From Thermoproteota archaeon (lineage in GTDB: Archaea; Korarchaeota; Korarchaeia; Korarchaeales; Korarchaeaceae), in assembly GCA_015522685.1 (NCBI GenBank), contig WALU01000051.1:1-34851 (forward strand): DNA of 34,851 nt, in the 5' to 3' direction. The number at the start of each line of letters is the position of its first letter. Positions within the stretch are counted from its first letter, which is position 1. Positions 5,457 to 32,929 of this stretch are shown here, piece by piece. The notes under the pieces were generated by a model, which had not been told where the DNA came from, did no database searches, and saw only the letters and a list, made by a program, of their open reading frames with translations. Position numbers and translations under genes: made by a program.

Positions 5457-6356
5457 ATGCTATCAGCCAGCTATTTTGCTCAGCAGTTGATAAATGGAAT
5501 AGTTTTGGGCAGCATGTACTCCCTACTTGCCCTAGGGATGACAGTCGTTTATGGTATACTCAGACTGATAAACTTCGCTCATGGAGCTTTTGTGATGCTG
5601 GGGGCTTTCTTCATATACTTCCTTACATCACTATGGAATGTACCCTTCCCCCTAGCCCTCGTCGCCCTAGCAATCTTCGGAGGTGTGATGGGAGTTTTCT
5701 ATGATACAGTAGGGTTCAGAAAGCTCAGAGGAAGAGGTGAGCTTCCTCTACTTATAACTAGCTTGGGAATATATATATTCCTAGAGAACCTTGCTAAAAT
5801 GATATTCTCGCCTCAGAGCTATGCCTTTTCAGCCCCAGACTATTTTTATGATAGGATAAGCTTGGGAAATGTGAGTATAGCCAATATAGATGTATTCACC
5901 ATAGCCTCCTCCATAATAATAGTTGTTGCATTCTCTCTGTTTCTCAGAAAGACTAAAGTAGGCATAGCTATGAGAGCCACTGCGGAGGATCTTGAAGCGG
6001 CTAGAATGATGGGAATTAATATAGATAAAGTAATACTTACAGCATTTATTATAGGAACTGCTATAGCAGCTCTAACGGGGTTTATGTGGGGAGCCAAATA
6101 TTCCTCAATACAGTACAATATAGGCTTCATGATAGGAGTTAAGGCATTTGTAGCTGTAGTCATAGGAGGGCTTGGAAGCGTTGCTGGATCAATGCTTGGC
6201 GGGTATATCCTAGGTATAGCTGAAATCTTGACTGTTGGGCTACTTCCACCCGGTTATGCGCCATACAGAGATGGAATCGTCTTTACTTTACTTGTTATAA
6301 TACTCCTAACTAGGCCATCAGGTCTCCTTGGTCAGAAGGAGGAGGTGAGGATCTGA
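5457..6356 (+). CDS. livH: Liv-type ABC transporter permease
   Basis: INFAHG, TKVGIAMRA, KAFVAVVIGGLGS, RPSGL; multiple TM segments. Confidence 0.94.
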   Translation: MLSASYFAQQLINGIVLGSMYSLLALGMTVVYGILRLINFAHGAFVMLGAFFIYFLTSLWNVPFPLALVALAIFGGVMGVFYDTVGFRKLRGRGELPLLITSLGIYIFLENLAKMIFSPQSYAFSAPDYFYDRISLGNVSIANIDVFTIASSIIIVVAFSLFLRKTKVGIAMRATAEDLEAARMMGINIDKVILTAFIIGTAIAALTGFMWGAKYSSIQYNIGFMIGVKAFVAVVIGGLGSVAGSMLGGYILGIAEILTVGLLPPGYAPYRDGIVFTLLVIILLTRPSGLLGQKEEVRI

Positions 6357-7381
6357 TGAAGAAGGACATGACGAAAGGCATATTAACGATAGTGCTATTC
6401 TTTATAATACTCTGGATAGCCCAACAGAACTTAAACAAGTATGTAATGTTTATAATCGACCTTATAGGCGTTTACATGCTTATAGTCCTCAGCTTGAATC
6501 TCACTAATGGATATACAGGTCTATTTAACTTGGGGCATGCAGGTTTCATGGCTGTCGGTGCATATACATCGGTGCTTCTCACATTTCCTGCGGCAGCTAG
6601 AAAATTTGCAGCTTTACCTTATCTTCCACCATGGCTTGGAGGTCCAAACTATCAATGGCCCTTCCTCCCGGCTCTCTTAATGGGTGGAATTCTAGCTGCT
6701 CTCCTAGCGATACCTGTTGGCTTGCCGGCTCTTAGGCTTAGAGGACATTATTTTGCAGTTATGACGCTGGGTTTTATGATAATAATGGAGACTATAGCCA
6801 TAAATGCTAGGGGACTAACTAGGGGAGCCCTTGGAATAAATGCCATTCCTACATATACAAATGTGTTCTGGACATATGGATGGATTCTCATCTTCCTCTA
6901 TATAGATATAATGCTCATGAGATCTTCGTATGGAAGAGCAATGCTCGCTATAAGGGAGGATGAAATAGCTGCTCAAGCTATGAGCATAAACCTAACGAAA
7001 TACAAGATGGTACCCTTCGTGCTCAGCGCTTTCTTCCAAGGGATAGCAGGCGGTCTCTTCGCTCATCTGACAACTAATATAAGCCCATACGATTTCTCCT
7101 TCGACCTAACATTTGCTACAATAATAATGCTTATAATAGGGGGATCTGGGACTATGACAGGTGCTATCCTAGGCACAAGCATACTTACAGCGCTTTCCTT
7201 CGCATTAAAGCCTGTCGAGGAGGGATTAAGGCTTTACGGCTTGATAGAGCTGATATATTCAGCTCTCCTGATTATAGTAATGATAAAATGGCCTCTTGGA
7301 ATATCTGGGGGAAATGAATGGACGTTGGACTATATAGCTAGGAAATTAAGATTGAAGAGAAAAGATACATATACCACCTGA
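6356..7381 (+). CDS. livM: Liv-type ABC transporter permease
   Basis: GYTGLFNLGHAGF, LRLRGHYFA, GRAMLAIREDE, GGSGT; TGATG overlap with livH. Confidence 0.94.
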   Translation: MKKDMTKGILTIVLFFIILWIAQQNLNKYVMFIIDLIGVYMLIVLSLNLTNGYTGLFNLGHAGFMAVGAYTSVLLTFPAAARKFAALPYLPPWLGGPNYQWPFLPALLMGGILAALLAIPVGLPALRLRGHYFAVMTLGFMIIMETIAINARGLTRGALGINAIPTYTNVFWTYGWILIFLYIDIMLMRSSYGRAMLAIREDEIAAQAMSINLTKYKMVPFVLSAFFQGIAGGLFAHLTTNISPYDFSFDLTFATIIMLIIGGSGTMTGAILGTSILTALSFALKPVEEGLRLYGLIELIYSALLIIVMIKWPLGISGGNEWTLDYIARKLRLKRKDTYTT

Positions 7382-7511: not shown

Positions 7512-8276
7512 ATGGGCATCATCCTAGATAAGGACGTGAACCTCCTTTTTCTAAGTGGGAAGAAGTTTAGGAAGGGAAGCTACGATAAAGCATTGATACC
7601 AGTTGGAGCATGCGAGAATCACGGGGATCACCTTCCCTTTGGCTCTGATACTATAGTCTCCACTAAGATAGCTGAAGAAGTAGCCAAGAGGGTTAAGGGG
7701 GCATTCGTAGTCCCACCCCTACCCTACGGAATGAGTGAGCACTATGCCATGTTTCCAATAGCCGTCTCTCTCAAACCTGAAACAGTTGTTGCAGTCCTTA
7801 AAGACGTTTTTGAAAGCCTTTACAAGCACGGACTAAGGAAATTCCTAGTAATAAATGGCCATGACGGAAATATAGAGCCTATAGAGATAGCATCTAGGCA
7901 ATTCAAGGTATCTCATAAAGATGCGAAAATAGCAGTACTAGATGCTTGGTGGGTGACGGCAGGAGAGCTCCTGCCTCCTGGTACCTTTGAAGTATGGGAT
8001 GGCCTAGGACATGCTGGTGAGGGTGAAACATCTATCAACTTGGCCATAGCCCCCGAGCTCGTTGATATGAAATCTGCTAAAGGCATAGTTCCAAAGCTTC
8101 CTGAGCACATAAAGATAGAGTGGACCTTCGATGAGCTGACTCCATATGGTGCTACAGGAGATCCAACAAAGGCCACAAAAGAGAAAGGAGAGAAGATGCT
8201 CAATGCAATCGTAGATTTCTTAGTGAAGTTCATACAAGATATGGATGCAAAAGACTGGAATTACAAGCAATACTGA
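7512..8276 (+). CDS. Creatininase-family amidohydrolase
   Basis: PVGACENHGDHLP..D, SEHY..FP, NGHDGN, HAGEGETS. Confidence 0.92.
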   Translation: MGIILDKDVNLLFLSGKKFRKGSYDKALIPVGACENHGDHLPFGSDTIVSTKIAEEVAKRVKGAFVVPPLPYGMSEHYAMFPIAVSLKPETVVAVLKDVFESLYKHGLRKFLVINGHDGNIEPIEIASRQFKVSHKDAKIAVLDAWWVTAGELLPPGTFEVWDGLGHAGEGETSINLAIAPELVDMKSAKGIVPKLPEHIKIEWTFDELTPYGATGDPTKATKEKGEKMLNAIVDFLVKFIQDMDAKDWNYKQY

Positions 8277-25937: not shown

Positions 25938-26159
25938 GTGATCTCTATGGAGCTTGAATGTCCAGAATGCGGCGCTATAATAGAACTTGATGAAGATGAG
26001 ACAGAAATAGGCCAAGAGATCGAATGTCCAGAATGCGGAACGATACTTATCTTAAGGAAAAGGGGTAAAAAATTCTTCCTAGAACCCTTGGAAGAGGAAG
26101 AGCTAGAAGAAGCGGATGAGGATGAAGATGAGACAGAAGCGGAGGAAGAGGATTATTAG
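25938..26159 (+). CDS. LysW-like zinc-ribbon protein with long acidic tail
   Basis: ECPECG-x-GQEIECPECG..L architecture of LysW; ends EEEDY rather than EDWGE; start may be ATG 25947. Confidence 0.7.
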   Translation: MISMELECPECGAIIELDEDETEIGQEIECPECGTILILRKRGKKFFLEPLEEEELEEADEDEDETEAEEEDY

Positions 26160-26165
26160 GAGATT

Positions 26166-26972
26166 TTAAGCTGTCTCAAGTATCTTAAATATAGAGATTC
26201 TTCCTATTCCATATTTCTTTATATTATCTAACCACTTGTCTGATACGGATACTATTGAAAAAATGCCCCAAAGCTCCGAACCCACCTCATCTATAATCCT
26301 CATTATGGCGTCTATGGATTCCAAATTATTAAGAACGTCTTTTACCAAGATGATTTTATCTCCTCTATTAATCGACGACCTTGGAATGAAAACATCCATG
26401 ATCCTTCCCTTATCGTGAGATACATAAGAACCTCTAGCGAAAGCATCCACGGTAAGACCAGGATAATCCAAAGTAGAGACCGCTTTGGAAGAGATCCAAT
26501 CAGATGATATAATAGCTAGGGGAGAAACAGCTGAGGGGTGGGCCAATATTATATTCACATCCTCCTCTCCAACGAATTTGGAGATAATATATCCCATTAA
26601 ATCTAAGAACTTGAAACTCGTAAGTAGCCTCCATGTTTCTACATATCCATAAGCATTTGTTCTCAATATCCTATCAAATGCCCTTTCAATTAGCCGTAGC
26701 TCCTCTATTTTACTAATTATCTTTCTGGCTGTCGGTTTTTCTGGGGTATTCTTAAGGCTAATGTACCTCCATATTACCTGGTAGGGTATGCCTAGCATAT
26801 CCTCAAGCTCTTTAAACGTGAAAAATCCTTTTAGTGAACTTAATAACCTAATTGATACATATGGCGACTCTAATCTACCTATTCTAACCAAAATCCTCAC
26901 CCATTTATATACCCAAAAAGAAGGCTGCCATGCATATAACCTTGAGCTTAAAGGGAAAGCGTGTATACTCAC
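26166..26972 (-). CDS. HTH plus phosphoribosyltransferase-fold protein (PurR-like regulator), degenerate PRPP loop
   Basis: FTFKELEDMLGIPYQVIWRY (HTH); INRGDKIILVKDVL (PRT core strand). True start is probably downstream of 26972. Confidence 0.75.
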   Translation of the reverse strand: MSIHAFPLSSRLYAWQPSFWVYKWVRILVRIGRLESPYVSIRLLSSLKGFFTFKELEDMLGIPYQVIWRYISLKNTPEKPTARKIISKIEELRLIERAFDRILRTNAYGYVETWRLLTSFKFLDLMGYIISKFVGEEDVNIILAHPSAVSPLAIISSDWISSKAVSTLDYPGLTVDAFARGSYVSHDKGRIMDVFIPRSSINRGDKIILVKDVLNNLESIDAIMRIIDEVGSELWGIFSIVSVSDKWLDNIKKYGIGRISIFKILETA

Positions 26973-27084
26973 AGAAATTTAAGGAGGTACCTCTAGTGAA
27001 TTATCATGGAATATTGTTAGCATGATTTTAGTTTAATCAGTCTTTTATTTCCTAATATAAGAAAGGAACGGCTGATCTGGCAAG

Positions 27085-28044
27085 ATGATCCAGAAAGATT
27101 GCTCCTTTGAGAGTTTTAGATTTCCTGGAACTTTTTTTAAAGCAAACTTAGTAGCTAGGATCTTAGGATATAAAGGAGATCTTTACATAAAATGGGAAGG
27201 AGATAACCCTACAGGAACACAAAAGGATAGGGCAGGTTTGAGGCATGCCGCTAAAGCATATTCCCAAAGATATTCTGGTTTAACAGTAGGTACCTGTGGA
27301 AACTATGGGGTTTCAATTGCATATTTTGCAAGTATGATGGGTCTAAAAGCAGTAATTTTCATGCCAAGGAGGTATTCTGGCTCTAGAATAGGAGAGATGA
27401 TAAGACTTGGTGCAAGAGTTATTAGAGTAGACGGGAGCTATGAGGACGCTGTAGAGGCTAGCATTCTAGCATCCCTAGAGGGAGATCTTTATGATGCAAA
27501 TCCAGGAGGGGTAAATGGAGAAGAAGCTCTTAGATCCTTTATGGACATAGCTTATGAAATTGTAAATTCTTTAGGAAAATCTCCAGATTTAGTTTCAGTA
27601 CCTGTAGGAAATGGAACTACCTTAGCCGGGATATACCTTGGATTCAAGGATCTTATGACTAGAGGGCTTACTGACAGAGTACCTAAGATGATCGGGGGAA
27701 CAACCGTCCTTGGAAACCAGGTAGCATTAACCCTTAAGAGATCATCTCGCGAGCTTGTGAATCTATCAGAGAGCGACGTTCGAGAAACAGAGGTCAATGA
27801 ACCTCTTGTGGCGATCAAATCTCTCGATGGGGGCGATGCGATTAAAGCTATCCTAGAAACTAAAGGCAGAGTCTATGAGCTCACCGATGAGGAAATGATC
27901 TCCTTGGCTGAAATTCTCTCGTTAGAGAGAATAGATCCTCTACCGGCTTCTAGCTCCTCATTAGGAGCAATAAGAGAGTATAGTGATGAAAATGCATTCT
28001 CAGGAACTGCCGTAGCAATTATCACTGGGAGAAAATCGAGATGA
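27085..28044 (+). CDS. Fold-type II PLP enzyme, threonine-synthase-like
   Basis: KWEGDNPTGTQKDR (PLP Lys), TCGNYG, VDGSYEDA, VPVGNGT, IITG. Confidence 0.88.
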   Translation: MIQKDCSFESFRFPGTFFKANLVARILGYKGDLYIKWEGDNPTGTQKDRAGLRHAAKAYSQRYSGLTVGTCGNYGVSIAYFASMMGLKAVIFMPRRYSGSRIGEMIRLGARVIRVDGSYEDAVEASILASLEGDLYDANPGGVNGEEALRSFMDIAYEIVNSLGKSPDLVSVPVGNGTTLAGIYLGFKDLMTRGLTDRVPKMIGGTTVLGNQVALTLKRSSRELVNLSESDVRETEVNEPLVAIKSLDGGDAIKAILETKGRVYELTDEEMISLAEILSLERIDPLPASSSSLGAIREYSDENAFSGTAVAIITGRKSR

Positions 28045-29087
28045 AGGAGGCCTTAATATTAACTGAGAGTAAATATCTCACCTCTGATGCTAAAACGGCT
28101 CATGGCTTGATCAGGAAATCATTAAGATATAAAATAGTCGGTGTAATAGATAGCACGGTAGCAGGGGAAGATGCAGGAATGATTTTAGATGGAAAGCCTA
28201 GAGGCATAAAGATATATGAGGATTTGAACTTGGCCTTAACTCATAATCCAAGGGCATCAGTACTTATAGTTGGAGTTGCCACCTCAGGAGGCAAGCTACC
28301 TTCTAGCTATAGAAGCATAGTAAGGGAAGCTCTTGAGAGGGGATTGGATGTAGTTTCTGGTCTTCATGAGTTTCTTAGTGACGACATTGAGCTATCCAGC
28401 ATAGCTAAAGAAAAAGGAGCGAAAATAATAGATGTTAGAAAAATATATCAGAGCATGAAAATTTTTTATACCGGAAAGATACGTGAAGTTAAATCTATCA
28501 GAGTCGTGGTCCTAGGTACAGACGCATGTATAGGAAAAAGAACAACAGCATGGATGCTCGTAGATGAGTTAAATGATAAGGGAATAAGGTCCGTTATTAT
28601 CGGTACTGGGCAAACAGCATGGATGCAAGGAGCTAAGTATGGAATAGTGCTAGATTCTATGATAAACGACTTTATTCCTGGTGGCCTAGAGCATGAAGTT
28701 TGGAGGGCCTACAAGGAGGAAAATCCTGATGTAATGGTGGTGCCTGGCCAGGGATCAATGCTGCATCCCGTATTCCCCGGTAGCTTTGAGATTCTTAACC
28801 TTCTCTCCCCAGAAGTTGTAGTCCTTCAACATGCTCCTGGGAGAAAGCACTTAGAGGACTTCCCAGAGTATCCGCTCCCTCCTTTAGATAAGTACATAAG
28901 TTTGGTAGAACTGATGACTGGAAACAAACCTACTGCGATTACGATAAACACTGAAGGAATGAGGGAAGAGGAAATTAATGCCTACCTAAGGAGAGTGGAG
29001 AGGGATTATGGGATACCTACATGTGCTCCTTTATTGCAAGGAGTTGAAAAAGTAGCTCGTCTAACAGAGAGGAGAATTGAAAGATGA
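28041..29087 (+). CDS. DUF1611 (DgcN-like) P-loop protein
   Basis: AKTAHG, GVA..GG, SGLHEFL, DVR, GTDACIGKRTT, TGQT, DF..G.LE, GQGS.LHP; ATGA overlap with the upstream gene. Confidence 0.88.
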   Translation: MKEALILTESKYLTSDAKTAHGLIRKSLRYKIVGVIDSTVAGEDAGMILDGKPRGIKIYEDLNLALTHNPRASVLIVGVATSGGKLPSSYRSIVREALERGLDVVSGLHEFLSDDIELSSIAKEKGAKIIDVRKIYQSMKIFYTGKIREVKSIRVVVLGTDACIGKRTTAWMLVDELNDKGIRSVIIGTGQTAWMQGAKYGIVLDSMINDFIPGGLEHEVWRAYKEENPDVMVVPGQGSMLHPVFPGSFEILNLLSPEVVVLQHAPGRKHLEDFPEYPLPPLDKYISLVELMTGNKPTAITINTEGMREEEINAYLRRVERDYGIPTCAPLLQGVEKVARLTERRIER

Positions 29088-30541
29088 ATGTCAATTTAAA
29101 GTGCTTTGATAGAATCTCAATTAAAGACCTAAAAGTTAAGCCTCATAGTATATCTTCTACATATTCATTGGAAATGGATGGAATAAGAAGAGAGTATAAG
29201 CTCATTGAGAGCTATACTGAAAATATAAATATAAGAGAAGTAAAGGGTATAGAAGAGCTTGCTAGCCTGATAAGCATAGTCCCAGTAGTTAACTATGCTC
29301 TATTCACAGATGAAATAAGCATAGACTTCCCAATCATAGAGTTAGATCTGAAATTTATGAGAGATATGAGTGAGATAACTTCTAGAGATGTATTTGTAAA
29401 TAGGATAGCTCGCGGGACTGGACTTGTAAAGGGAGAGTATATTCCTGATCCTGAGAGCATATCCCTCATGGATGCCAAGCCTAGGGCATCAATTTATGCT
29501 AGGAGGTCCACCTCTACAGCGTTAGACGAAATTGATGGAGAATATACGTGCGGGACCATGCTCTCTGGGGGTAAGGATAGTCTTCTCACTTATTCTCTCT
29601 TGAAGGAGGCAGGATGCAAAGTATATCCTTTTTTTCTAAATGAATCTGGGAGGCATTGGCTATCTGCTTTGAAGGCATATAGATACTTTTCGAAAAATAT
29701 TCCTCTAACAAGAAGAGTGTGGAGCAATATAGATAGGTTATTTGCATTTATAGAGAGAAATATGAAAATTGTGGTCCCTAATTTCATGAGAAAATCCAGA
29801 GAACTTTATCCTATAAGATTATTCTGGTTTGAGCATTATGCTTTCTCTTTTCTACCGCTTATAATGAAGTATAAAGTAGGGAATATAAATTTTGGAAACG
29901 AATTTGATGATCCCACGAGCTCTTCCTTCACCTTCAGGGGAATAGAGCATTATAACGCAATATACGATCAATCTCAGAGTTTTGAGAAATATATGACCAA
30001 TTGGTTCGGAGAAAGAGGATTGGGCATAAAGCAATGGTCTCCCATAAGGCCAATCTCCGGCTTGATTGTAGAGAAAATCCTCTATGAAAGATATAGAGCA
30101 ATGATACAGCTGCAAATGAGCTGTCACTCTCCTAAAATAGTTAGGGGAGAGCTAATACCTTGTGGAAGCTGCTTTAAGTGCACAGGCGTAATGATATTCC
30201 TCTTAGCTAATGGAATAGATCCAAAAATGGTAGGATACACCACTAGCCTGAGTGAAGTGCTTGCTAGAGTTAGAGAAGGAAAATATAGATTAGATAAGGA
30301 TGAGTTGGAGCATTCCTTATTTCTTATGGGAAAAAGATTTCTTATAAAGAGTCCCAAAGCATCATATCACCCTCATGTTGAGACAATCCACTTCGATAAC
30401 ATATCCTCTCATCTCGACTTTATTCCTCAGAAAAAACTAAGAGAAAGAGTACTTGGTATATTAGAGAGGTATACGAAGGGATATTCTGTCTTGAGGGGAA
30501 ACAAATGGGAGATAATGAACAAGGAAAAGCTATCAATGTAG
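29084..30541 (+). CDS. PP-loop (adenine nucleotide alpha-hydrolase) protein with C-terminal Cys cluster; MurL-like epimerase candidate
   Basis: SGGKDS, FGNE, S..FE, SPIRPISGL, SCH, PCGSCFKC; 485 aa; ATGA overlap with the upstream gene. Confidence 0.7.
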   Translation: MNVNLKCFDRISIKDLKVKPHSISSTYSLEMDGIRREYKLIESYTENINIREVKGIEELASLISIVPVVNYALFTDEISIDFPIIELDLKFMRDMSEITSRDVFVNRIARGTGLVKGEYIPDPESISLMDAKPRASIYARRSTSTALDEIDGEYTCGTMLSGGKDSLLTYSLLKEAGCKVYPFFLNESGRHWLSALKAYRYFSKNIPLTRRVWSNIDRLFAFIERNMKIVVPNFMRKSRELYPIRLFWFEHYAFSFLPLIMKYKVGNINFGNEFDDPTSSSFTFRGIEHYNAIYDQSQSFEKYMTNWFGERGLGIKQWSPIRPISGLIVEKILYERYRAMIQLQMSCHSPKIVRGELIPCGSCFKCTGVMIFLLANGIDPKMVGYTTSLSEVLARVREGKYRLDKDELEHSLFLMGKRFLIKSPKASYHPHVETIHFDNISSHLDFIPQKKLRERVLGILERYTKGYSVLRGNKWEIMNKEKLSM

Positions 30542-31011
30542 AGATTAGAATAGTAGAGTTACCTCCTGAGGAATTTGAGAAGTACATAGAGTTTGACTCT
30601 ATGATGAGTTGGGAGTTTATAGATGAGGAAATAAGGAATAAGATGACCTTTGAAGATTACAAAGAAATTCATAGAAGGCTTGTTAGTATTATTTACTTCT
30701 CTAACTTGGATAACAGAATATTCGCTGCCATAAAGAGAGATGATATAATTGGCATAGCTTGGGTTGGATTGAAAATAGATACAATCAACTACATACCTAT
30801 AGGGTATCTTTATGATATAGAAGTTAGAGAAGATTACAGAAGAAGTGGCTTGGGGAGTAAGCTAATGTATCTAGTGGAAGAGGCTTGCAAGGAATGGAGT
30901 GTAGATAGAATTGTGCTCTCCGTTGACTTGGATAATAAGGAAGCATATAGATGGTATCTAAAGAGAGGATACCATATAAAGAGGCTGATAATGACTAAAA
31001 TACTGAGATGA
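30505..31011 (+). CDS. GNAT-family N-acetyltransferase
   Basis: YLYDIEVREDYRRSGLGSKLM (motif A), N..AYRWYLKRGY; overlaps the upstream gene. Confidence 0.9.
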   Translation: MGDNEQGKAINVEIRIVELPPEEFEKYIEFDSMMSWEFIDEEIRNKMTFEDYKEIHRRLVSIIYFSNLDNRIFAAIKRDDIIGIAWVGLKIDTINYIPIGYLYDIEVREDYRRSGLGSKLMYLVEEACKEWSVDRIVLSVDLDNKEAYRWYLKRGYHIKRLIMTKILR

Positions 31012-31191: not shown

Positions 31192-32547
31192 TTGCGAGAT
31201 AATATCCTCTACTTCATGAGATATAATATCCTAGATGATTTGAAGTCTCTTATAGAGAGGGGTGAATTATCGGAGGCTAAAGAGGCAATAAGAGAACTAT
31301 TAAAGAACGCTAATGGCGATTATAAGAGAAGATTAGAGTTCGAAGAAAATAGGCTCTATAGATGGCCCATGCAATATCCATTCGAGGAGGAAGAGGCTTT
31401 AGAGGAGCTGAAGAAGAGAATACCGAGCCTCACCATGGAAGAATTTAGGAAGTTAATAGAGAGGGGATGCATAGACTACAGGCTGCTGGAAGGAAAGGTA
31501 AGGATATTCGAGAGGTTTGTCCCCAATTCCCTCTGGTTATGTCCCGATTTGAAAAACAAGGCTATAGAGGAGAAAGATGAGACTATAGAGAGGGCTAAAG
31601 CAGCCTTAGTTGATAGAGCAATGGACGTCATGAGTTCGAGGGCCAAGCCCCTCACCTACAAGTTCAGGGCGAAGGTTATCCTAGGTAAGGGATCCGTGCC
31701 TAAAGGAGAGAAGGTTCGGGTATGGATTCCCATACCTAGAGTGAGCGATCTGCATCCTGAAGTCAGGATACTGGCATATAATCGAGAACCTTACTTGGCC
31801 GATGAGATGCATAAACAGAGGACGGCATATTTCGAGTTCGCCTCCTCTGGCCTAAATGATGAAGTATGGATAGAATATGAGGTAGTTGCAAAGCCGTTCA
31901 AGGTCGATTTAAAGCACGAAGAGGTGGAAGAAATTAGAATTAGCGATTATCTGGAGGAGAGGATACCTCATGTGAGGTTCACTAGGGAGCTTAGGGACCT
32001 AACTAAATCTATAGTTGGGAATGAGGACAATCCGCTGCTCAAGGCTCGTAAGATATGGGATTGGATAGTGGATCACGTGATATACACTTACGTGCACGAC
32101 TACGCTCTCTTCGATAACATAAGCATGTATGCGGCCACTAAGAGGAGAGGAGATTGCGGAATTCAGGCTATACTACTTATTACAATGCTTAGGCTGGCTG
32201 GCATACCTGCAAGGTGGCAATCAGGCTGGTACGCTAATCCTGTTAGGCCCGGAATGCATGACTGGGCTCAATTCTATATAGAACCATATGGATGGGTCTA
32301 TGCCGATCCTAGCTTCGGCCACCCTAGAGATGGAGAAGATTGGAGGAGGGATTTCTACTTCGGCAGCATCGAGGGCTTCAGGCTGGCTTTCAACTCGGAG
32401 ATAAACCACCCATTCGATCCTCCGAAGGAGCACTTCAGGTCCGATCCCGTTGATAGCCAGAGGGGGGAAGTCGAGTGGGATGGGGGTAATCTCTACTACG
32501 ATAAGTGGGATTTCGAGTTAAACCTCTTGGAGGTAGGATCTCCCTGA
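31192..32547 (+). CDS. Transglutaminase-like domain protein
   Basis: RGDCG (Cys), GIPAR, HDWAQFY (His), GW..ADPS (Asp). Start is probably ATG 31216. Confidence 0.88.
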   Translation: MRDNILYFMRYNILDDLKSLIERGELSEAKEAIRELLKNANGDYKRRLEFEENRLYRWPMQYPFEEEEALEELKKRIPSLTMEEFRKLIERGCIDYRLLEGKVRIFERFVPNSLWLCPDLKNKAIEEKDETIERAKAALVDRAMDVMSSRAKPLTYKFRAKVILGKGSVPKGEKVRVWIPIPRVSDLHPEVRILAYNREPYLADEMHKQRTAYFEFASSGLNDEVWIEYEVVAKPFKVDLKHEEVEEIRISDYLEERIPHVRFTRELRDLTKSIVGNEDNPLLKARKIWDWIVDHVIYTYVHDYALFDNISMYAATKRRGDCGIQAILLITMLRLAGIPARWQSGWYANPVRPGMHDWAQFYIEPYGWVYADPSFGHPRDGEDWRRDFYFGSIEGFRLAFNSEINHPFDPPKEHFRSDPVDSQRGEVEWDGGNLYYDKWDFELNLLEVGSP

Positions 32548-32608: not shown

Positions 32609-32929
32609 ATGCCCGCCTACGTGATAGATCTTAGAGCAGATAGAAGATGGATAGAGCTTGTGGAGAGGTTCAAGGAGACTTTACTATCTAGGCTAGGCGA
32701 TCTTCTGGTTAAGATAGTGGCTCTAGCTTCACCTGATGATCAGCTTTACGATTCCAACGTTCTAGTTATCGTAGAGAGGGATGATGATGCAGTGGTATGG
32801 TCCATAATGGAGTCGATAGCAGAGGTCGAGAGATCTGCTGGAATGGAGGGCACAATCTCTCCCTTGATAGTAACCCCAAATGAGAGAAGAATTATAGAGG
32901 GCTTCGAGGGATACGAAGTTGTCTGTTAA
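32609..32929 (+). CDS. Degenerate minimal nucleotidyltransferase-fold protein (HEPN partner)
   Basis: MNT size and topology (helix, LVKIVAL, SNVLVIV, ISPLIV) but lacks GS and DxD; overlaps the HEPN gene. Confidence 0.65.
   Translation: MPAYVIDLRADRRWIELVERFKETLLSRLGDLLVKIVALASPDDQLYDSNVLVIVERDDDAVVWSIMESIAEVERSAGMEGTISPLIVTPNERRIIEGFEGYEVVC

Follow-up and report, generated by a model that had tools for sequence, protein, structure and literature searches.

The window analyzed here is a stretch of 34,851 nucleotides (nt) from the archaeal assembly GCA_015522685.1 (contig WALU01000051.1, positions 1 to 34,851; family Korarchaeaceae in the GTDB lineage). It contains an operon of four co-oriented genes, which form the core of what we call the cassette and which are predicted to encode, from 5' to 3', a fold-type-II pyridoxal 5'-phosphate (PLP) enzyme, a DUF1611 protein, a 485-aa PP-loop protein remotely related to the peptide epimerase MurL, and a GNAT N-acetyltransferase (Table 1). 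Genes of this set recur in the same order and on the same strand in other archaeal phyla, some of them are fused to each other, the MurL-like and DUF1611 genes are inherited together within the phylum of the window, and the entire cassette is present in some genomes of the genus and precisely absent from others. By analogy to characterized relatives of the encoded proteins, we suggest that the cassette acylates an amino acid or short peptide and then activates its carboxylate at the expense of ATP, with a probable inversion of configuration, a reading to which we assign a probability of roughly 0.4.

The initial annotation of this DNA, which was made from the sequence alone, described four co-oriented genes with overlapping ends, and both the coordinates in the list of open reading frames (ORFs) and the overlaps are borne out when the sequence is read directly: ATGA start/stop overlaps are present at 28041 and 29084, and the third and fourth genes share 37 nt (30505-30541). 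The four labels that it attached to these genes were also correct, as judged from Pfam and NCBIfam models and, for the MurL-like protein, from remote homology.

The MurL-like protein

To our knowledge, MurL is the only characterized ATP-dependent peptide epimerase. Excerpts of the papers on this enzyme describe it as converting ATP to AMP and as acting unidirectionally, from L to D, on the C-terminal Glu of a peptide (PMC5808125, PMC8788868). The 485-aa protein of the window is not recognized as a relative of MurL, or of any other family, by simple searches: it exhibits no match to a Pfam or NCBIfam family at an expectation value (E) of 0.01 or less, no sequence match in the PDB, and no match to any Pfam family, QueC included, even at E<=10. 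Several conserved features emerge from an alignment of 16 of its homologues (alignment A1). The residues S161, G162, G163 and S166 of an SGGKDS PP-loop (residues 161-166) are invariant and K164 is conserved at 90% or more, and the four cysteines Cys347, Cys360, Cys363 and Cys366, which resemble a QueC-type cluster, are invariant together with further motifs.

The connection to MurL is drawn from several lines of evidence that are partly independent of each other. The NCBIfam model for MurL, NF041275, is matched by 7 of the 16 members of A1 at E<=10 (best E 7.9e-5), and the protein of the window itself scores 12.8 bits (E 0.03) against an equivalog cut-off of 700. A profile search of 1.84 billion representative sequences returned 511 proteins at E<=1e-3, of which 276 remained at E<=1e-10 and 80 at E<=1e-30. 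A clade of proteins of ~450 aa bridges the distance, since its members match A1 at E 1e-18 to 1e-21 and 17 of the 24 that were scanned are also recognized by the MurL model, with E values between 2.5e-6 and 5.9e-12. When the alignment of this bridging or sister clade (A3) was compared with A1 by hhalign, the two were matched over 287 columns with a probability of 100% (E 2.2e-42) and were found to have in common the motifs S[FG]GKDS, FGNE, DQS and SC...C..C.KC. Among 120 listed homologues, 2 carry a precomputed match to the Pfam family PF26299, which the Atlas calls MurL_N. Finally, 28 of the 30 nearest Atlas feature matches of a Thermococcus homologue (P0063, 50% identical) carry MurL Pfam families, and the Atlas model of this homologue superimposes on a MurL cluster with a TM (template modeling) score of 0.74; such statements about fold pertain to the model of P0063 and not to the window protein. 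Taken together, the sequence comparisons and the predicted structure identify the 485-aa protein as a remote homologue of MurL, i.e. a member of a MurL superfamily, and its score against the equivalog model indicates that it is not an orthologue of MurL.

The same motifs invite a second interpretation, in which the protein would be a QueC-like ligase or amidotransferase. Here the adenylated carboxylate would be attacked by ammonia or an amine instead of being epimerized, the product might be a small N-acylated amino-acid amide or nitrile (e.g. a solute, a signal or a metallophore precursor), and the PLP enzyme would make an unusual amino acid. The SGGKDS loop and the C-terminal PCGxCxKC cluster are both invariant in A1; the only PDB match to the A1 profile, although very weak (E 0.38), is the QueC-like protein Cap9, and it is aligned precisely on these two motifs; and three relatives bear the name "QueC" in JGI annotation. 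The gene order PLP enzyme, DUF1611, MurL-like, GNAT would suit a build-up pathway, and the fusion of a methyltransferase to one MurL-like representative (P0143) hints at tailoring of a product. We nevertheless consider this interpretation somewhat unlikely. The failure of the 485-aa protein to match QueC or any other PP-loop family of Pfam, noted above, speaks against it, as does the fact that those nearest Atlas neighbors that are named all belong to MurL families. QueC and Cap9 share with the MurL-like protein an SGGxDS PP-loop, a C-terminal PCGxCxxC cluster and, as far as the mechanism proposed for the MurL-like protein goes, activation of a carboxylate by adenylation; the MurL-like protein differs from them in an extra N-terminal domain of ~150 residues, a long C-terminal region and its gene context. 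That context includes epimerase-like, carboxypeptidase-like and amidohydrolase partners (see below), which are better suited to breakdown or stereochemical editing than to a tailored product, and no amidotransferase (glutaminase) is found among the frequent neighbors of the 80 loci described in the next section.

Conservation of the gene neighborhood

A scan of one genome per species detected at least 567 loci that encode a relative of the MurL-like gene. The best 80 of these, 75 from archaea and 5 from bacteria according to their record titles, were kept for neighborhood counts, and the counts given here for DUF1611, PLP and GNAT genes are lower bounds, as the ORF filter overlooked some genes, for example the GNAT genes of L005 and L066, as well as run-on ORFs in L015 and L017. 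Of the 76 loci with 1 kb or more of sequence upstream, 66 have a DUF1611 gene immediately before the MurL-like gene and on its strand; among the 64 loci that extend for 2.1 kb or more, 50 have the PLP gene in front of DUF1611. Where 500 nt or more of downstream sequence are available (73 loci), at least 49 have a GNAT gene abutting the 3' end of the MurL-like gene, either co-directional (14) or convergent (36). In seven Thermoplasmatota loci (L064, L071, L078-L080, L040 and L059) the convergent gene encodes a Tsr3-like ribosome-biogenesis protein (Ribo_biogen_C) in place of a GNAT.

The set can also be divided. Four of five genomes that were checked, from Thermofilaceae and one member of the Myxococcales, carry the PLP-DUF1611 and MurL-like-GNAT genes as two pairs at separate sites. 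A separate observation on one of the Thermofilaceae genomes is that the MurL-like-GNAT pair is preceded by a gene of the isoaspartyl-peptidase/asparaginase family and a gene for a transporter of the major facilitator superfamily (L006:4308-6558). Elsewhere the association is tighter than adjacency, as in the proteins P0124 (a cluster of 34 member sequences) and P0141, in which DUF1611 is fused to the MurL-like protein.

Within the phylum of the window we compared 32 genomes, each at least 80% complete. The MurL-like gene occurs in 10 of them and has a DUF1611 gene next to it in all 10, and DUF1611 is absent from 21 of the 22 genomes that lack the MurL-like gene; the exception (G029, 83% complete) has only a DUF1611 fragment of 52 residues. 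The arrangement of these genes is not due to chance: they follow one another in this order, on one strand, in archaea of other phyla as well, and the presence or absence of MurL-like and DUF1611 genes agrees in 31 of 32 genomes. Co-occurrence elsewhere had been set beforehand as the test of the initial annotation's proposal, and the genes do recur together, both in the 80 loci and in the phylum table.

The partner enzymes of the core operon

The PLP enzyme belongs to the PALP family of Pfam (155.4 bits). It exceeds the cut-off of the legacy NCBIfam model PRK06381, which is named "threonine synthase" (378.7 vs 266 bits), and falls below that of the thrC model TIGR00260 (72.5 vs 167 bits); threonine synthases are also its closest relatives in the PDB (E 1.6e-25). 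Its match to the legacy model is what might be cited for the view that the operon is a chance neighborhood of unrelated housekeeping genes, among them the organism's threonine synthase. However, a canonical ThrC is encoded elsewhere in the genome (contig C49; TIGR00260, 288.5 bits), so that the PLP gene can be ruled out as the housekeeping threonine synthase, and the order conserved across phyla, the gene fusions and the matching presence and absence contradict a chance neighborhood, to which we give next to no credence.

Both Pfam domains of the DUF1611 protein are recognized above the gathering score (PF07755 and PF17396; DUF1611_C 219.5 bits, DUF1611_N 102.7 bits), and its relatives in the PDB are 2g0t, 7xrj and 2obn. 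It scores 176.5 bits against the equivalog model for the D-Glu N-acetyltransferase DgcN (NF041892), for which the cut-off is 480. PMC12363236 gives DgcN the role of key gene in an "irreversible racemization pathway", and PMC13759103 predicts that a distant homologue of DUF1611 acts as an N-succinyl-Glu synthase. These relatives of the DUF1611 protein are amino-acid N-acyltransferases, the second by prediction. The GNAT is recognized by Acetyltransf_1 (58.8 bits vs a gathering score of 20.7) and reaches no NCBIfam equivalog cut-off.

Fusions, additional partners and a sister clade

The initial annotation also predicted that additional partners would be found at related loci, and such partners do exist, in the form of epimerase/racemase-like genes of the enolase superfamily, M14-like carboxypeptidase genes and fusions to creatininase-type amidohydrolases. 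A creatininase-family amidohydrolase domain is fused to the C-terminus of the MurL-like protein in 8 of 17 long representatives that were scanned; the nearest model to this domain is the peptidyl-dipeptidase MftE (161 bits vs a cut-off of 172), and a possible role for it would be the removal of an acyl group. The window has a creatininase-family gene of its own (7512-8276; 119 bits against the creatininase model, cut-off 235), which we considered and rejected as a demonstrated partner of the cassette in view of its distance of 19 kb and its identity of 31% to the fused domain of P0142.

A gene of the enolase superfamily, similar to dipeptide epimerases and DgcA, occurs in 17 of the 80 loci, and an M14 carboxypeptidase-like gene in 15 of the 80. 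Four of the enolase-superfamily genes were scanned. Their scores against the DgcA model are 144-167 bits (cut-off 400). Three of them come closest to the model of the Thermotoga-type L-Ala-D/L-Glu epimerase (241-249 bits, cut-off 500), and the fourth has 200 bits on the L-Ala-D/L-Glu epimerase model, just behind a cycloisomerase model. No model cut-off was reached by any of the four. No Mur ligase is seen among the recurrent neighbors of the 80 loci; the window's own genome has one weak Mur_ligase_M match, on another contig, and at 92% completeness it has no Asp/Glu racemase.

These partners might be taken as signs of a specific salvage of peptidoglycan-derived peptides that contain D-Glu, which would be a narrow sub-case of the acylation, activation and inversion proposed above. 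Both of the characterized relatives, MurL and DgcN, act on Glu according to excerpts of the respective papers (PMC5808125, PMC8788868, PMC12363236), and the epimerase-like and M14-like genes would be at home in such a route. On the other side, no cut-off of any Glu-specific enzyme model is reached, and no enolase-superfamily epimerase-like, DgcA-type or M14-like gene adjoins the operon in the window. We regard specialization on peptidoglycan-derived D-Glu peptides as quite improbable, and the specific tie to D-Glu that was drawn in the initial annotation is unsupported at 176.5 vs 480 bits for DgcN and 12.8 vs 700 bits for MurL.

The sister clade of the MurL-like family offers a different set of partners. 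For neighborhood counts it was represented by a narrower alignment (A4), the first having been too diverse, and by 80 metagenome loci (L098-L177). In 55 of these the gene adjoins one or two, often tandem, genes for ATP-grasp proteins that resemble D-Ala-D-Ala ligase (Ddl; E 3.5e-25 vs PDB 5d8d). This clade resembles the cassette family in its hhalign match (probability 100%) and in the presence, at 10 of its 80 loci, of the same threonine-synthase-like PLP subfamily (E 1e-58 to 1e-68 vs the PLP enzyme of the window), and it differs in its ligase partner and in the near absence of DUF1611, found at only 1 of 80 loci. At the sister-clade loci that have it, the PLP gene is convergent, and a putative acetyltransferase of ~178 aa is also encoded there.

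Across the superfamily, the constant partner would appear to be an enzyme that forms an amide bond at an amino group, be it MurD2 (from the literature), a Ddl-like ligase, or DUF1611 and GNAT. The DUF1611 and creatininase fusions, the epimerase-like and M14-like neighbors and the Ddl-paired sister clade all point to reactions that take place on N-acyl amino acids or at the C-terminus of peptides.

Extent of the cassette and its distribution in the genus

The four core genes stood as described in the initial annotation, which missed two further genes of a larger unit. In three genomes of the same genus that lack the cassette (G020, G023 and G021), genes for a Nudix protein and a transglutaminase-like protein are directly adjacent to each other; the segment 25678-31191 (~5.5 kb), which separates them in the window, is therefore a presence/absence unit, and the cassette is gained or lost as such. 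The transglutaminase-like gene was considered as a member of this unit and rejected, as it abuts the Nudix gene in genomes without the cassette and thus belongs to the flank. The cassette is carried by 8 of the 17 genomes of the genus and is therefore an accessory unit. In one of them (G016) all six genes are intact in a rearranged context.

Table 1. Genes and other features of the cassette region in the window
Feature	Coordinates	Strand	Length	Description and basis
LysW-like small protein	25938..26159	+	73 aa	Cys4 zinc ribbon and long acidic tail ending EEEDY (Pfam/PDB)
PurR-like protein	26166..26972	-	268 aa	Phosphoribosyltransferase fold, weak N-terminal helix-turn-helix; divergent from the operon (NCBIfam/PDB)
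Intergenic region	26973..27084	.	112 nt	AT-rich, divergent (sequence read directly)
Fold-type-II PLP enzyme	27085..28044	+	319 aa	Threonine-synthase-like, PRK06381 type (Pfam/NCBIfam/PDB)
DUF1611 protein	28041..29087	+	348 aa	Rossmann-like N domain and P-loop C domain; distant relative of DgcN (Pfam/NCBIfam)
MurL-like PP-loop protein (P0001)	29084..30541	+	485 aa	Cys4; remote MurL homologue (alignment A1 motifs, remote homology)
GNAT N-acetyltransferase	30505..31011	+	168 aa	Acetyltransf_1
Transglutaminase-core protein	31192-32547		451 aa	No NCBIfam match; flank of the cassette
ORF	32609-32929		106 aa	No family; flank of the cassette

One of the two additional genes encodes a PurR-like protein. 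Its score against PRK08558 is 99 bits (cut-off 184), it matches the PurR model TIGR01743 at E 2e-9 and other models of the phosphoribosyltransferase fold below their cut-offs, and its helix-turn-helix matches are weak (E 0.05-0.1); its sole sequence matches in the PDB are to the Pur operon repressor (E 5.6e-6). Homologues adjoin the PLP-DUF1611 genes in L001, L002, L083, L085, L093, L094 and L095, Thermofilaceae included. The protein is probably a regulator of the operon, and the intergenic region between the two (Table 1) is presumed to be the site of promoters for both. A scan for sigma-70-type promoters and for terminators gave results at background level, the sigma-70-type consensus being unsuited to an archaeal host. 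Scans of the cassette region for tRNA genes and Rfam families produced no matches, nor did a tblastn search against plasmids.

The other additional gene, which is convergent with the PurR-like gene and lies outside the operon, encodes a small protein similar to LysW. Residues 6-63 match the LysW-type "probable lysine biosynthesis protein" 5k2m_E of the PDB (E 5.9e-4), and the ORF scores 26.3 bits against the Pfam family Zn_ribbon_LysW, just under the cut-off of 27 (40.8 bits for the orthologue in L002). We consider it to be a predicted divergent paralogue of the amino-group carrier protein. Its orthologues (E<=1e-15) are found ~2 kb upstream of DUF1611 in six other genomes of the genus (G016, G019, G027, G029, G030 and G031). 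EDWGE is the C-terminal tail motif of the LysW amino-group carrier protein, and the canonical LysW of the window's genome, which is encoded between two RimK-type genes on C49 (60.4 bits), ends with it; the RimK-type genes of this genome are confined to C49. The LysW/LysX system (PDB 5k2m, 3wwl) is similar to the cassette in that it includes a small zinc-ribbon protein of the Cys4 type whose C-terminal tail is acidic, but the cassette copy ends in EEEDY and not in EDWGE, and no LysX-type ATP-grasp ligase is adjacent to it. Still another LysW-like small ORF is located at a contig end in the same genome (C32:231-494) and has a long, acidic tail with many Trp and Phe residues that ends in Phe; copies resembling it (E ~1e-5 to 1e-7) exist throughout most of the genus, in genomes with the cassette as well as in genomes without it.

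The presence of a LysW paralogue raises the prospect of a carrier-protein route in this genus, whereby the MurL-like enzyme would adenylate the C-terminal alpha-carboxylate of the LysW-like protein, the tail of which ends in Tyr or Phe, and join it to an amino acid that is then processed while tethered, as in the LysW-dependent synthesis of lysine and ornithine. Seven genomes of the genus have both the cassette and, traveling with it, this paralogue, which is distinct from the canonical LysW, and at E<=1e-15 no orthologue was detected in 8 same-genus genomes without the cassette; moreover, a peptide C-terminal carboxylate is the site on which MurL acts in the excerpts cited above (PMC5808125, PMC8788868). 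Against such a route stands the distribution of the gene outside the genus. Among the other 79 loci, only L002 has a LysW-like ORF within 7 kb, and the cassettes of other genera in the phylum (G006, G034) and of Thermofilaceae have no LysW-like gene beside them, so that its linkage to the cassette is limited to this genus with the exception of L002. The sub-threshold Pfam score of the window copy and its location outside the operon also count against the carrier route, which we judge to be highly doubtful.

A possible pathway and its relation to known systems

The steps that we infer for the cassette, together with their substrate and direction, would be as follows. The DUF1611 protein, the GNAT or both would add an acyl group from an acyl-CoA donor to the alpha-amino group of a free amino acid or a short peptide. 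The MurL-like PP-loop enzyme would then adenylate the alpha-carboxylate of the N-acyl amino acid, with conversion of ATP to AMP and pyrophosphate, which would render the alpha-proton labile, as has been proposed for MurL, and most probably lead to inversion followed by hydrolysis. The acyl group might be removed by an amidohydrolase that is encoded elsewhere or, in other lineages, fused to the MurL-like protein, and the threonine-synthase-like PLP enzyme might supply or consume the amino acid, i.e. serve as the entry to the pathway or the exit from it. In this genus the LysW-like protein may act as a carrier or docking partner, and the PurR-like protein probably regulates the operon. We slightly favor the scavenging of D-amino acids or D-containing peptides over a role of the cassette in biosynthesis.

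The sequence of N-acylation, adenylation, inversion and deacylation seems to us the most economical reading, and it has parallels in both the MurD2/MurL and the DgcN/DgcA systems. MurD2 and MurL (XOO_1320 and XOO_1319 of Xanthomonas oryzae; NF041275; Pfam families MurL_N and MurL_epimerase_C) resemble the cassette in the remote sequence similarity and predicted structure of the MurL-like protein and in the placement of a gene for an amide-forming enzyme beside that for an ATP-using enzyme. In contrast to MurL, the cassette protein has DUF1611, a threonine-synthase-like PLP enzyme and GNAT as partners in place of a Mur ligase, and its hosts are archaea without murein. The DgcN-DgcA pathway of D-glutamate catabolism was reportedly described by Yu et al. 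in 2023 for marine Proteobacteria and haloarchaea. In it, as would be the case in the cassette if the inversion proposed here takes place, an acyltransferase of the DUF1611 family is coupled to a second enzyme, by which the configuration of an N-acyl amino acid is inverted ("irreversible racemization"), and the DgcA-like genes noted above at related loci add to the likeness. The differences are the distance of the window's DUF1611 protein from DgcN, the nature of the coupled enzyme, a putative ATP-dependent MurL-like protein and not an enolase-type racemase, and the additional PLP enzyme and GNAT.

Several observations weigh against the acylation, activation and inversion scheme. The 485-aa protein is so far from MurL in score that the reaction it catalyzes may differ from that of MurL, and its layout of PP-loop and Cys4 cluster resembles equally that of QueC and Cap9, enzymes that form amides or nitriles or conjugate proteins. 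The scheme does not explain why two acyltransferases, DUF1611 and GNAT, should be encoded in one operon. Similarity between the co-directional and the convergent GNATs is weak (the GNAT of the window matches convergent ones at E ~1e-6 at best), and the two arrangements may for that reason represent independent recruitments. The fifth of the genomes checked for separated pairs, a complete Thermoplasmatales chromosome (G005), has MurL-like, GNAT, M14-like and MR_MLE genes and no DUF1611, which means that DUF1611 is not obligatory. A second epimerase looks redundant at the 17 loci that already have an enolase-type epimerase, and the LysW-like gene is absent from cassettes outside the genus.

A more ambitious form of the proposal, and an unlikely one, is that the cassette represents an undescribed mode of ATP-driven chirality inversion that is common to archaea of several phyla, in which an acyl group added by DUF1611 or GNAT or, perhaps in this genus, a LysW-like protein would mask the amino group while adenylation of the MurL type drives the inversion in one direction. 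If this were true, organisms without murein would possess a dedicated D-amino-acid metabolism that relies neither on PLP racemases nor on enolase-type racemases. The initial annotation was aware of no described pathway with this gene set, and a literature search on DUF1611 and MurL, which was not exhaustive and did not extend to supplements, likewise brought up no published description of it. New in the present report are the precise indel, the table of co-occurrence at the level of genomes, the LysW-like and PurR-like companions and the creatininase fusions as a possible deacylase step.

The MurL-like family would constitute a large and mostly archaeal branch of its superfamily, with at least 567 loci in species-representative genomes, and the different partners of its members might provide a route to the mechanism of MurL as well as a possible explanation for the handling of D-amino acids by archaea of sediments and hot springs. 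The presence of the cassette in about half of the genus and its precise absence from the rest amount to natural plus/minus strains, and the cassette is a well-defined target through which functions might be assigned to DUF1611 and to the "threonine synthases" of the PRK06381 type, whose present annotation under that name is wrong.

Additional features of the window and its genome

Two other regions are recorded here in their own right. The segment 3984-8276 of the window encodes an ATP-binding cassette transporter of the Liv/Urt type (permeases at 5457-7381), which is followed by the creatininase-family gene mentioned above. Elsewhere in the same genome, C9:33000-46500 (L081) might be a second locus of amino-acid stereochemistry, with genes for a CysK-like PLP enzyme, a radical S-adenosylmethionine protein, a dipeptide-epimerase-like protein of the enolase superfamily (263 bits against the L-Ala-D/L-Glu epimerase model, below its cut-off), a protein with the ornithine/diaminopimelate-decarboxylase fold, and a class-III aminotransferase whose below-cut-off matches include models of racemase families.

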